Origin: Enterobacteria phage mEp213
Sequence record: NC_019720.1
DNA: 44,120 nt
Direction: 5' to 3' (one strand)
The notes under the pieces are model-generated. The model was not told where the DNA came from. It ran no database searches and saw only the letters and a program-made list of their open reading frames with translations. Each line of letters begins with the position of its first letter. The stretch's first letter is position 1. Both the position numbers and the translations under genes were made by a program. Positions 39,401-44,120 of the stretch are shown here, piece by piece.

Positions 39401-39603
39401 CGTTCTCAGTAAAAACCATTCCAGACATGCTCGTTGAAGCATACGGAAACCAGACAGAAGTAGCACGCAGGCTGAAATGTAGTCGCGGCACGGTCAGAAA
39501 ATACGTTGATGATAAAGACGGGAAAATGCACGCCATCGTCAACGACGTTCTTATGGTTCATCGCGGATGGAGTGAAAGAGATGCGCTATTACGAAAGAAT
39601 TGA
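39397..39603 (+). CDS. ninH: NinH
   Basis: 68 aa, matches lambda NinH from memory. Confidence 0.85.
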
Positions 39604-40246
39604 TGGCAGCAAATACCGAAATATTTGGGTAGTTGGCGATCTGCACGGATGCTACACGAACCTGATGAAAAAACTGGAGACGATAGGATTCGACACCAAA
39701 AAAGACCTGCTTATCTCGGTTGGCGATTTGGTTGATCGCGGTACAGAGAACGTCGAATGCCTGGAATTAATCACATTCCCCTGGTTCAGAGCTGTACGTG
39801 GAAACCATGAGCAAATGATGATTGATGGCTTATCAGAGCGTGGAAACGTCAATCACTGGCTGCTTAATGGCGGTGGCTGGTTCTTTAATCTCGATTACGA
39901 CAAAGAAATTCTGGCTAAAGCTCTTGCCCATAAAGCAGGTGAACTTCCGTTAATCATCGAACTGGTGAGCAAAGGTAAAAAATATGTCATCTGCCACGCC
40001 GATTATCCTTGTGACGAATACGAGTTTGGAAAGCCAGTTGATCATCAGCAGGTAATCTGGAACCGCGAACGAATCAGCAACTCACAAGACGGGATCGTGA
40101 AAAAAATCAAAGGCGCGGACACGTTTATCTTTGGTCATACGCCAGCAGTGAAACCACTTAAATTTGCCAACCAAATGTATATCGATACCGGCGCAGTGTT
40201 CTGCGGAAACCTCACATTGATTCAGGTACAGGGAGAAGGCGCATGA
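39584..40246 (+). CDS. ninI: Ser/Thr protein phosphatase (lambda NinI/PPase)
   Basis: GDLHG, GDLVDRG, RGNHE metallophosphatase motifs; start trimmed to MRYYERIDG. Confidence 0.9.
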
Positions 40247-40866
40247 GACTCGAAAGCGTAGCTAAATTTCATTCGCCAAAAAGCCCGATGATGAGCGACT
40301 CACCACGGGCCACGGCTTCTGACTCTCTTTCCGGTACTGATGTGATGGCTGCTATGGGGATGGCGCAATCACAAGCCGGATTCGGTATGGCTGCATTTTG
40401 CGGTAAGCACGAACTCAGCCAGAACGACAAACAAAAGGCTATCAACTATCTGATGCAATTTGCACACAAGGTATCGGGGAAATACCGAGGTGTGGCAAAG
40501 CTCGAAGGAAATACTAAGGCAAAGGTACTGCAAGTGCTCGCAACATTCGCTTATGCGGATTATTGCCGTAGTGCCGCGACGCCGGGGGCAAGATGCAGAG
40601 ATTGCCATGGTACAGGCCGTGCGGTTGATATTGCCAAAACAGAGCTGTGGGGGAGAGTTGTCGAGAAAGAGTGCGGAAGATGCAAAGGCGTCGGCTATTC
40701 AAGGATGCCAGCAAGCGCAGCATATCGCGCTGTAACGATGCTAATCCCAAACCTTACTCAACCAACCTGGTCACGCACTGTTAAGCCGCTGTATGACGCT
40801 CTGGTGGTGCAATGCCACAAAGAAGAGTCAATCGCAGACAACATTTTGAATGCGGTCACACGTTAG
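40243..40866 (+). CDS. Q: Late antiterminator Q (lambda-like)
   Basis: 207 aa, matches lambda Q from memory, including the Cys zinc motif. Confidence 0.9.
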
Positions 40867-41628: not shown

Positions 41629-42088
41629 TCAACGTAAGGCGTTCCTCGATATGCTGGCGTGGTCAGAGGGAACTGATAACGGACGTCAGAAAACCAGAAA
41701 TCATGGTTATGACGTCATTGTAGGAGGAGAGCTATTCACTGATTACTCCGATCACCCTCGCAAACTTGTCACGCTAAACCCCAAACTCAAATCAACAGCC
41801 GCCGGACGTTACCAGCTTCTTTCCCGTTGGTGGGATGCCTACCGTAAGCAGCTTGGCCTGAAAGACTTCTCTCCGAAAAGCCAGGACGCTGTGGCACTGC
41901 AACAGATTAAAGAGCGTGGCGCTTTACCGATGATTGATCGCGGTGATATCCGTCAGGCAATCGACCGTTGCAGCAATATCTGGGCTTCGTTGCCCGGGGC
42001 TGGTTATGGACAGTTCGAGCATAAGGCTGACAGCCTGATTGCAAAATTCAAAGAAGCAGGCGGAACGGTCAGAGAGATTGAGGTATGA
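41612..42088 (+). CDS. R: Endolysin R (lytic transglycosylase)
   Basis: 158 aa, lambda R-like (catalytic Glu in WSEGTDNG). Confidence 0.9.
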
Positions 42089-42522
42089 GCAGAGTAACCG
42101 CGATTATCTCCGCTCTGGTTATCTGCATCATCGTCAGCCTGTCATGGGCGGTTAATCATTACCGTGATAACGCCATTACCTATAAAGAACAGCGCGATAA
42201 GGCCGCATTCATTATCGCTGACATGCAGAAACGTCAACGCAATGTAGCAGAACTCGACGCCAGATATACAAAGGAGCTTGCTGATGCTAACGCGACTATC
42301 GAAAGTCTCCGTGCTGATGTTTCTGCTGGTCGTAAGCGCATGCAAGTCGCCGCCACCTGTGCAAAGTCAACGACCGGAGCCAGCAGCATGGGCGATGGAG
42401 AAAGCCCAAGACTTACAGCAGATGCTGAACTCAATTATTACCGTCTACGAAGTGGAATCGACAGGATAACCGCGCAGGTTAACTACCTGCAGGAGTACAT
42501 CAGGACGCAATGCCTTCGATGA
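42085..42522 (+). CDS. Rz: i-spanin Rz
   Basis: N-terminal transmembrane segment plus coiled coil, lambda Rz-like. Confidence 0.85.
42284..42469 (+). CDS. Rz1: o-spanin Rz1 (lipoprotein embedded in +1 frame of Rz)
   Basis: Signal peptide with VSAC lipobox, Pro-rich mature region; AAGGAG RBS inside Rz. Confidence 0.7.
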
Positions 42523-42974: not shown

Positions 42975-43170
42975 GGATGTTTTTAACACGTTCAGGATCA
43001 AGTTTTTCCTGGACAAATTTTGTCAACCCATCATATAAATCTTTGTTCGGGTACAGCTCATTAACTGCTTTAATTAGTGCTCCAAAAGCAAGCTGATTTG
43101 CTATTTTTTGTACGGCTAATTCTTTTTCTAACTGCTCAACCTTTTCTTTTAAACCAAAACCTTCTGACAT
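42910..43170 (-). CDS. Hypothetical helical protein (86 aa)
   Basis: AAGGA RBS 7 nt upstream of ATG; coiled-coil-like sequence. Confidence 0.5.
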   Translation of the reverse strand: MSEGFGLKEKVEQLEKELAVQKIANQLAFGALIKAVNELYPNKDLYDGLTKFVQEKLDPERVKNIPNLHEAFLEAAKILRTDASPE

Positions 43171-43299
43171 TTTTGATTCCTTATTCTGAGGTAATCAGCC
43201 ATTACTCTTTATTAAGTGCGCCAGTGTCCCACCACCGACGGGCTGAATGCCTACATTAACCAGGGTTAAGACGAAACAACACCCTGATATTCAAACAGT

Positions 43300-43323
43300 A
43301 GCCGCCATCACGCGGCTTTTTTA
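43300..43323 (+). terminator. Intrinsic terminator (+ strand)
   Basis: GCCGC-N5-GCGGC hairpin followed by T6. Confidence 0.5.
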
Positions 43324-43435
43324 TGCGCATCGCACGCGCACATCGTAGAAAGTCTTTCAGCTGTGAGCCTGGGCAAACCGTTAACTTTCGGCGGCTTTGC
43401 CGTGCGACAGGCTCACGCCTAAAAGGAAATAAATC

Positions 43436-43903
43436 ATGGGTCATAAAATTATCACGTTGTCCGGCGCGGCGACGGATGTTCTGTATGCGCTGTTTTTCCG
43501 TGGCGCGCTTCAGTCTGGTGATCTGCCAGCCAAATCTGGTGCTGCTGAGCTTCTAGAGCTGGGATTCGCTGAAACACGCCATACCGCGACGGAGTATCAA
43601 AAGGAAAATTATTACACCTTCCTGACCGCTGAAGGGCAGGAGTTCGCCATTAAGCACCTGGTGAATACGCGCTTTGGTGTTCCTGCTGGTGGTTATATTG
43701 GTGGCTCTGTAAATATTCAGTTTGGCCGGATAGAGAACGACCCACGAAAAGGCTATGCCATCAATGTTGGCATCTGTCCCGAAATTAAGACCGGCGTGAA
43801 GCTATCCCCTGAAATGGTAAAAGCGATCTCAGATGTTGTGTCCGAGGAACTGAAGAAGAGTCTTCGGCCAGGTGGCACGATATGGTCAGCGCTGTCGCGA
43901 TGA
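43436..43903 (+). CDS. Hypothetical protein (155 aa) between lysis cassette and cos
   Basis: AAGGA RBS; preceded by a long compound dyad at 43363-43416. Confidence 0.5.
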   Translation: MGHKIITLSGAATDVLYALFFRGALQSGDLPAKSGAAELLELGFAETRHTATEYQKENYYTFLTAEGQEFAIKHLVNTRFGVPAGGYIGGSVNIQFGRIENDPRKGYAINVGICPEIKTGVKLSPEMVKAISDVVSEELKKSLRPGGTIWSALSR

Positions 43904-44003
43904 ATGGACGTTTAGACGTCCAAATTGGTGCGAATCAAGTCGCATTCACGCAAATGATAATCATTATCATTTGCGGGTCCTCCCGGCAGGGTGGCCTGCC
44001 ACG

Positions 44004-44015
44004 GGGCGGCGCGCT
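44004..44015. other. cosN-like cohesive end site (GGGCGGCGCGCT)
   Basis: Flanking sequence ...GGGTCC...CCACG|GGGCGGCGCGCT|CGCGGG parallels the lambda cos junction from memory; palindromes upstream. Confidence 0.55.
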
Positions 44016-44120
44016 CGCGGGAAACGGCTAGTTTTTCGGATCCAGGGTCATCATCATCAAGTGCGCAGGTCTTTGATTTAATTAGAGGCCATTTTCGCAA
44101 GATGTCGAATCGTTCAAAAA

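Follow-up and report, generated by a model that had tools for sequence, protein, structure and literature searches.

The genome of Enterobacteria phage mEp213 (NC_019720.1; 44,120 nucleotides (nt), analysed whole and called the window below) carries, between its lysis genes and cos, a folded leader RNA of six helices that ends at the ribosome-binding site of an open reading frame (ORF) of 155 amino acids (aa). We consider it reasonably probable that this RNA, acting in cis, gates the start of translation on the gene that heads an accessory cassette within the late, Q-antiterminated operon. The RNA family is apparently undescribed and would work by a known principle. An initial annotation of the window had covered the central hairpin only; a further stem-loop (SL1), two pseudoknots, pairing of the Shine-Dalgarno (SD) sequence, and the independence of the element from the gene that follows it are added here.

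The window is that of a lambdoid coliphage and, by BLAST, is 100 per cent identical to mEp213 and mEp043 over positions 43150–44120. Its genes run from Q (40243–40866) through holin, endolysin, Rz (42085–42522), and several small ORFs to the leader with its 155-aa ORF and then cos. Because of this order, the leader is placed at the distal end of the late operon, with the + strand as the transcribed strand. The cos sequence (GGGCGGCGCGCT, 44004–44015, following the cohesive-end annotation of phage LLS) lies about 100 nt short of the end of the window, so that the window represents a complete, permuted genome of about 44.1 kilobases.

The initial annotation described a 54-nt nested dyad at 43363–43416, immediately upstream of a ribosome-binding site. 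The dyad is present as claimed, with arms GTGAGCCTG (43363–43371), GGCAAA (43372–43377), TTTGCC (43396–43401), GTGCGA, and CAGGCTCAC (43408–43416), and its outer arms are also recovered by an inverted-repeat search. It does lie directly 5′ of the ribosome-binding site, as the SD sequence AAAGG (43422–43426) comes next and is followed by the ATG of the 155-aa ORF at 43436. RNAfold predicts a 20-base-pair (bp) interrupted hairpin of −30.3 kcal/mol (z = −2.6), and 2 of 200 shuffled sequences fold equally well. Taken alone, this stability is suggestive, being moderately unusual and not decisive. The dyad is nonetheless not a product of chance, because it is conserved across genomic contexts and its diverged copies carry compensatory changes that preserve the stems, as the covariation analysis proposed in the annotation brought out. 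Loss of the dyad from relatives with the same gene would have counted against it; instead, every relative with the 155-aa gene keeps the dyad (mEp237, Phi06, SaltyDalty, phi80, and two further loci, L024 and L130, where L numbers are our locus handles).

The dyad is the P2–P3 core of a larger structured leader RNA that spans 43320–43430 on the + strand (Table 1). We distinguish four subtypes of this element: type A, to which the window copy belongs and which is about 110 nt long, and types B, C, and D; the other subtypes measure 125–135 nt. Its six helices are SL1, P1, P2, P3, and the two pseudoknots, of which PK1 joins the SL1 loop to the bulge between P2 and P3 and PK2 joins the linker to the apical loop of P3. 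The SL1 loop sequence UCGCAC is the exact complement of the bulge GUGCGA. In the basal helix P1, UCUUU pairs with the SD sequence AAAGG, and in type A the 5′ strand of PK2 adjoins this anti-SD with an overlap of 1 nt.

Table 1. Features of the leader RNA and its immediate surroundings in the window.
Feature	Position	Strand	Basis or remark
Intrinsic terminator, stem AGCCGC/GCGGCU plus U-run	43300..43322	+	Terminator scan; directly upstream of the element
Whole RNA element	43320..43430	+	Covariance model R1, 129.8 bits; single copy in the window
SL1, 5-bp stem UGCGC/GCGCA, 7-nt loop AUCGCAC (43329-43335)	43324..43340	+	
PK1 5′ strand UCGCAC, in SL1 loop; partner bulge 43402-43407	43330..43335	+	Covariation
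PK2 5′ strand GAAAGU, in linker; partner P3 loop 43384-43389	43348..43353	+	Covariation, permutation test
P1 5′ strand: anti-SD UCUUU (43353-43357), AG (43359-43360), U43362; partner 43417-43426	43353..43362	+	
P2 5′ strand GUGAGCCUG (outer arm of dyad)	43363..43371	+	Inverted repeat, RNAfold, covariation
P3 5′ strand GGCAAACCG (inner arm plus 3 more pairs)	43372..43380	+	RNAfold, covariation
PK2 3′ strand ACUUUC, within P3 apical loop 43381-43391	43384..43389	+	
P3 3′ strand CGG-(C bulge)-UUUGCC	43392..43401	+	RNAfold, covariation
PK1 3′ strand GUGCGA, the 6-nt bulge on the 3′ side between P2 and P3	43402..43407	+	
P2 3′ strand CAGGCUCAC	43408..43416	+	Inverted repeat, RNAfold, covariation
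P1 3′ strand, including SD AAAGG (43422-43426)	43417..43426	+	Paired in minimum-free-energy (MFE) structure
155-aa ORF, cargo of the window copy	43436..43903	+	phrog_16910 match (unknown function)

The covariance model, R1, was built from the nested helices only, and neither PK1 nor PK2 was part of it. Searching with R1 identified 75 copies in the fetched loci, 64 of them distinct. In the resulting alignment of types A–C, 91.4 per cent of cells are paired, against 20–48 per cent in slid controls, and changes on both sides affect 18 pairs, where shuffles give 9.0 ± 1.4 (0 of 500). For PK1, to which the alignment was not fitted, 99.5 per cent of cells are paired and five of the six pairs have changed on both sides. 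Its two strands switch in concert between versions (UCUCAC/GUGAGA, UCGCAU/AUGCGA, UCGUAC/GUACGA, UAGCAC/GUGCUA, UUCACC/GGUGAA, and UCACAC/GUGUGA). Changes on both sides were also found at three of the five SL1 pairs and at five of the six lower pairs of P3. PK2 can form with 5–8 bp in all 64 distinct copies, in at least ten sequence versions (including CGAGAG/CUCUCG, AGAGAG/CUCUCU, CGAUA/UAUCG, CCCGAG/CUCGGG, CCCAGAG/CUCUGGG, CCAAGAG/CUCUUGG, and CCUGGAG/CUCCGGG). When loops were re-dealt among linkers, the observed complementarity was reached in 0 of 5000 permutations. The signal is specific to one strand, as R1 scores 130 bits on the + strand of the window and 17 bits on the reverse strand.

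P1 covaries as well: CCUUUCAG.../...CUAAAAGG is replaced in diverged copies by CCUAUAGAAAG/CUUUCUAUAGG (CCUAUAG/CUAUAGG). The MFE structures of types A, B, and C all pair the SD sequence. Among 34 distinct combinations of flanking sequence, the basal extension contributes −7 to −21 kcal/mol in every one, and in all 33 cases where the SD core (AAGG or UAGG) could be located it is paired at three or four of its four positions. Pairing of the SD within a conserved helix that directly precedes the start codon is what defines an SD-sequestering leader, and the element shows it, more weakly so in type D.

The apparent invariance of P2 among these copies was partly a matter of ascertainment, since the pattern used to scan the collections required an exact P2. 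We corrected for this with a protein-anchored sample of 80 IMG/VR loci fetched via the phi80 Rha protein. An element lies upstream in 79 of these 80 loci: about 45 have the phi80-rha type and 33 the diverged subtype D, in which P2 reads AUGAGCCUUUG/CAAAGGUUCAU, with a compensated variant GAGCCGUUG/CAACGGUUC, PK1 reads CCGCA/UGCGG, and PK2 reads CGUCGA/UCGACG or CACCGA/UCGGUG. Although R1 was built without type D, it matches type D copies over their full length (E = 2.6e-5 for L295 and 1.5e-4 for P22). The core of P2, GAGCC/GGYUC, is conserved across subtypes while the other helices drift.

Type D was then assessed on a plain MAFFT alignment of 106 copies, including that of P22, on which the structure was imposed afterwards. 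Pairing reaches 95.5 per cent, against 37–42 per cent in slid controls. PK2 is 98.9 per cent paired and three of its six pairs have changed on both sides, with exchanges of GC for AU (60/44) and UA for CG (78/28). Changes on both sides also affect three of five pairs in PK1, four of four in SL1, and five of ten in P3, and P2 contributes one exchange of UA for GC. One G-U pair in P2 is invariant across the 106 copies, and the opposite strand would be unable to form it. In the type D SD, the two G residues have an unpaired probability of at most 0.10. About 170 distinct copies of all subtypes underlie the covariation as a whole. Judged on these alignments, each of the six helices is shown to be maintained by compensatory changes, and the RNA fold appears established to the standard of comparative analysis, with the caveat that the relatedness of the sequences makes the shuffle controls generous. 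Types B and D also have a conserved block, (G)TATCYGMATTTCAC, that is absent from the window's type A; it sits between the terminator and SL1 over 15–20 nt (e.g. L270 548–562) and loosely resembles a half-site for IHF.

The element travels without regard to the genes around it. By BLAST, a block of about 117 nt (43314–43430) is 94–98 per cent identical in phages with unrelated flanking genes, and the match ends at the ATG. Such near-identical blocks are found in HK639 (where the copy follows the major tail gene and precedes an unknown gene), mEp390, Fraca, FSL SP-016, LMessi, and phi80. Klebsiella and Enterobacter phages have more distant copies (70–80 per cent identity), which without exception follow the lysis genes and lie in sense orientation. 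Most of the 75 copies have a terminator directly upstream, and the distance from the element to the ATG is 4–8 nt. The genes that follow encode Rha (PF09669), KilA-N (PF04383), ANT (PF03374), a 485-aa GT2-like glycosyltransferase, mosaic proteins containing Phage_Tail_Tip, small membrane proteins, or the 155-aa ORF of the window. From these comparisons, the element is independent of the downstream gene.

Type D precedes rha in P22, ES18, and BTP1; in Stx2 phages, HK544, and others it precedes KilA-N genes. The subtype is abundant in IMG/VR, where a pattern scan for it returned at least 102 distinct sequences, a few of them by chance. Among 5426 complete E. coli genomes, megablast found type A-like copies in 122 (about 2 per cent) and type D copies in 836 (about 15 per cent), with up to five copies per genome, and none was annotated as RNA. 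The phage, IMG/VR, and E. coli collections are the basis for this taxonomic range. A scan of 596 gigabases of genome contigs with an unspecific P2 pattern gave one real copy among the matches listed, in Enterobacter intestinihominis (L255). The copies in the 'Aeromonas' phage AsXd-1 (L014) and the 'Elizabethkingia' phage EKP1 (L004) are enterobacterial elements (97 and 80 per cent identity, respectively) within typical lambdoid lysis regions; these phages may carry wrong host labels or have been propagated on contaminants.

Two elements of different subtypes, each at the head of a separate accessory cassette, are found in many phages, and thirteen IMG/VR contigs contain two elements. Typically a Rha or KilA-N gene comes first, and a gp59-like or glycosyltransferase gene second. 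In phi80, the two elements (908–1033 and 2502–2612 of the fetched locus) precede rha and ORF x171.28. In eleven of the thirteen contigs the two copies have different PK2 sequences; in the other two (L102 and L356) the sequences are the same.

Several existing annotations overlie the element. In P22 (NC_002371) it occupies 39503–39647, and the annotated start of rha at 39575 falls inside the P3 loop; the true start is likely the ATG at 39644 (MNELIANHDFDFRQLV...), 8 nt past the SD. Small coding sequences for hypothetical proteins cover the element in CharmingMan (L009 2013–2129), LMessi (L016 94–231), and phi80 (PHI80_65, L003 2495–2794, − strand), and are probably spurious.

How might such a leader work? 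A scan for consensus sigma-70 sites between terminator and ATG in types A, B, and D identified no promoter-like site, and the element would therefore be read by late, Q-modified transcription that passes the upstream terminator. P1 would then hold the SD at the foot of a compact pseudoknotted fold, so that the start of ribosomes on the first accessory gene is gated. Antirepressor-like proteins with the potential to do harm (Rha, KilA-N, ANT) are often among the products of these cassettes, which lie on a very abundant late transcript. At its simplest the gate would be a tight constitutive throttle; a switch seems more likely because the fold is elaborate. The order of the strands, in which the 5′ strand of PK2 runs into that of P1, would require P3 to fold back along P2–P1 to reach PK2, while SL1 and PK1 would clamp the turn between P2 and P3. 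In type A, P3 with its 3-nt spacer looks short for this reach, and we speculate that closure of P1 and docking of PK2 are alternative states; by competing sterically, they would give the element the character of a switch and not of a lock. Expression would then be set by whatever factor stabilizes one of these states, be it a protein, a cut by an RNase, an ion, or a ligand.

The com-mom system of phage Mu offers a parallel. There, a leader structure blocks translation from starting on an accessory gene that is potentially harmful and stands at the end of a late transcription unit. The Mu structure is a simple hairpin opened by Com, whereas the element described here has two pseudoknots, heads many unrelated genes in many phages, and is a predicted gate. 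The initial annotation had offered three roles for the dyad, and that of a riboregulator gains support from its place within a strand-specific, covarying RNA whose basal helix pairs with the SD.

Several points weigh against a translational gate. We infer control of translation from the pairing of the SD and the position of the element only. A simple hairpin would be enough for a throttle, which leaves the two pseudoknots unexplained. Few unpaired nucleotides are conserved and there is no obvious ligand pocket for a switch. Covariation does not separate simultaneous from alternate formation of P1, PK1, and PK2. In type D, the contiguous P1 helix stops 2–3 nt short of the SD, whose CC:GG pairing (86 per cent of cells, no double changes) is weak evidence. 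Finally, the shuffle controls overstate significance for sequences as related as these, and the alignment of types A–C was fitted to the nested helices (though not to PK1 or PK2).

An unlikely alternative is that the element serves RNA processing or stability, with the P2–P3 helix of about 18 bp as a site for RNase III (or RNase E) that separates the cassette from the upstream late mRNA. The shape fits: the hairpin is interrupted, spans about two helical turns, and has an asymmetric 6-nt loop; it is intercistronic in a long polycistronic phage transcript and belongs to a portable element found at cassette boundaries. The T7 R1.1 and lambda N leader hairpins are likewise intercistronic, interrupted helices of about 20 bp with a one-sided internal loop near a downstream ribosome-binding site, and the RNase III sites of T7 and the lambda N leader work via such cleavage. 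Here a cut could, with similarly small probability, free the SD or leave a protective 5′ structure; by making sequestration of the SD bimolecular instead of intramolecular, it would be a plausible 'on' step. The 'internal loop', however, covaries with the SL1 loop as part of PK1 and so is not free, and the element has further helices. RNase III substrates need neither two pseudoknots nor a conserved P2 sequence.

Somewhat more doubtful is a ligand-sensing riboswitch or self-cleaving ribozyme, in which a doubly pseudoknotted aptamer or catalytic core would open or close P1 in answer to a small molecule, an ion, or a signal of the state of infection. Pseudoknot topologies are typical of small riboswitches and ribozymes, and the complex fold, its strong covariation, and the P2 core kept across subtypes would suit one, as would an SD helix beside the fold that resembles an expression platform. 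The preQ1-II and SAM-II/V riboswitches similarly have a pseudoknotted 5′ leader and fold-dependent access to the SD. Unlike these, the present element is far larger and almost fully helical, with few conserved unpaired positions and no similarity of sequence or model to them. The genes downstream are heterogeneous (Rha, KilA-N, ANT, GT2, tail-tip-like), with no common metabolic theme, and none of the riboswitch or ribozyme models in Rfam gives a match, even with E allowed up to 10. In its broadest form the idea is of a new class of switchable RNA (a riboswitch sensing a ligand, ion, or protein, or a self-cleaving ribozyme) with two pseudoknots around the GAGCC/GGYUC helix and state-dependent release of translation of antirepressor-like and other accessory genes; we give this a small chance. 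Its users may include temperate phages of Enterobacteriaceae such as P22, phi80, and Stx phages, and the PK1 and PK2 'codes' might insulate co-resident copies from one another or, as with c4, permit cross-talk.

The resemblance to c4 raises the possibility, which we think improbable, of a module acting in trans: SL1 together with the linker would come off as a small RNA carrying two short code segments that pair with the bulge and loop of target leaders, be it its own or those of co-resident or superinfecting phages, giving an immunity-like, type-specific control of antirepressors. In phages P1 and P7, icd-ant is regulated by c4 RNA, which relies on two short complementary segments encoded further upstream in the same transcript. 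As in that system, two short, phage-variable segments lie in an upstream RNA near an antirepressor ribosome-binding site. PK1 and PK2 exist in many discrete versions around a fixed P2 core, the PK2 codes usually differ between co-resident copies (eleven of thirteen, as above), many of the target genes are antirepressor-like, and covariation alone does not separate pairing in cis from pairing in trans. Against this, c4 is a processed, separate antisense RNA whose target covers the ribosome-binding site, whereas here the SD is paired by its own anti-SD and the partners are always adjacent on one transcript, which favours intramolecular pairing kinetically and makes it the probable arrangement. 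Moreover, nothing was found that would serve a separate small RNA as promoter or processing site, the Rfam C4 model has no match in the window or in the type A, B, and D loci, and co-resident copies sometimes share a code.

Hardly credible is a neutral recombination linker at mosaic boundaries, a DNA operator, or a transcription attenuator or terminator, for although the element is an inverted repeat that stands exactly at mosaic junctions, with homology ending at the ATG and conservation that would favour homologous exchange of cargo, the half-sites are a variable 36–60 nt apart, no U-run follows the hairpin, and selection has acted on RNA and not DNA because compensatory changes affect six helices (two of them long-range), the stems include G-U pairs, and the strands are asymmetric. 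The two other roles first suggested for the dyad fare accordingly: an operator is not supported, given the G-U pairs, the strand asymmetry, and the covariation of bulge and loop 70 nt apart, and neither is attenuation, as the sole terminator-like site lies upstream at 43300–43322 and the hairpin, which ends at 43416, is followed by GCCUAAAAGGAAAU.

The leader did not match any Rfam 15 family. At the gathering score, Rfam 15 gave 0 matches in the whole window; for 43200–43480 at E up to 10, the only matches on the element were at chance level (uxuA, DUF2815, and asX2; 13–17 bits against cut-offs of 41–70), and for the type A, B, and D loci nothing was found at E up to 1. A full-text literature search returned no description of the element, though its coverage was incomplete and did not include older work on rha. 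We rejected an RNA thermometer of the fourU or ROSE kind: UCUUU:AAAGG is present, but in some subtypes the P1 extensions are as stable as −13 to −21 kcal/mol, and two pseudoknots are conserved. With the JUMPstart/ops element of RfaH (motif GGCGGTAGnnTG), only GGCGG is in common (GGCGGCTTTGCC in the window), and the Rfam JUMPstart model has no match. An upstream ORF (ATG 43323 in SL1, 77 aa) was also set aside, its ATG being replaced by ACG, CCG, or GAG in many copies. So was a promoter inside the element; the −10-like linker TATAAT in L059 is unconserved, the scans were negative, and the covariation of the SL1 loop with the bulge requires SL1 in the RNA.

The 155-aa protein, the cargo of the window copy, has no Pfam match. 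It has 458 homologues in Enterobacteriaceae, under names that include 'Fur-regulated protein', 'phage tail tip fiber protein', and DUF1983. Residues 1–80 form a conserved module found also in phi80 ORF x171.28 and in N15 gp59-like mosaic proteins. An AlphaFold model of the whole protein is of low confidence (predicted local distance difference test score (pLDDT) 58.7 overall); residues 1–80, with a local pLDDT of about 70, are predicted to form helix–helix–beta hairpin–helix. Foldseek returned weak PadR/MarR-like winged-helix matches only (best E = 0.03), and the model gives no more than a hint of such a fold. Together with the cargo proteins of L002, L042, L129, L130, L134, L009, and L103, the product of 43436–43903 belongs to a set of mosaics that have in common a C-terminal motif, ...(K/R)PGGx(I/L)(W/Y)xxxxR, behind varied N-terminal modules, and in which a Phage_Tail_Tip (PF09327/DUF1983) segment is frequent.

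Between the stop codon of this ORF and cos lies a perfect 27-nt palindrome (43949–43975, CGCAAATGATAATCATTATCATTTGCG) whose core matches the Fur-box consensus GATAATGATAATCATTATC; 'Fur-regulated protein' is a frequent name among homologues of the ORF (phi80 ORF x171.28). A 7-mer complementary to RyhB (CUGAAAG), inviting in view of the Fur box close by, was put down to chance, the order of the segments being wrong for a duplex. On the other side of the leader, Rfam reports a weak similarity to isrK across 43242–43322 (+), scoring 17.6 bits where the cut-off is 50 (E = 0.098) and ending within the terminator at 43300–43322. This stretch is common to mEp043 and mEp213 only and could be a small RNA or a mere resemblance of terminators.

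The initial annotation had placed the 155-aa gene in a position often used for lysogenic-conversion cargo. A variable cargo slot between the lysis genes and cos does exist, but no promoter was found that would serve expression in a lysogen. The arrangement recalls the morons of Hendrix and Juhala, insertions of promoter, gene, and terminator in late operons, in that the element heads variable, terminator-bounded cargo between conserved late genes. It differs in that the consensus scan of types A, B, and D found no promoter of its own, and the conserved unit is a structured RNA leader and not a transcription unit.

If a translational gate is the right reading, well-studied phages, among them P22, phi80, ES18, and Stx2 phages, carry an unannotated folded RNA before rha, kilA, and ant-type genes and other cargo. 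Some gene starts and spurious ORFs would be corrected, such as the P22 rha start annotated inside the RNA. The leader would also give a handle on how toxic, antirepressor-like genes are restrained on an abundant late transcript; Rha is said to harm phage growth in IHF mutants, an old observation that is possibly related. The modular PK codes could provide orthogonal parts for synthetic translational control. For the phages themselves, the element would be a portable 'cassette leader', and the sharpness of mosaic junctions at start codons would thereby be explained.

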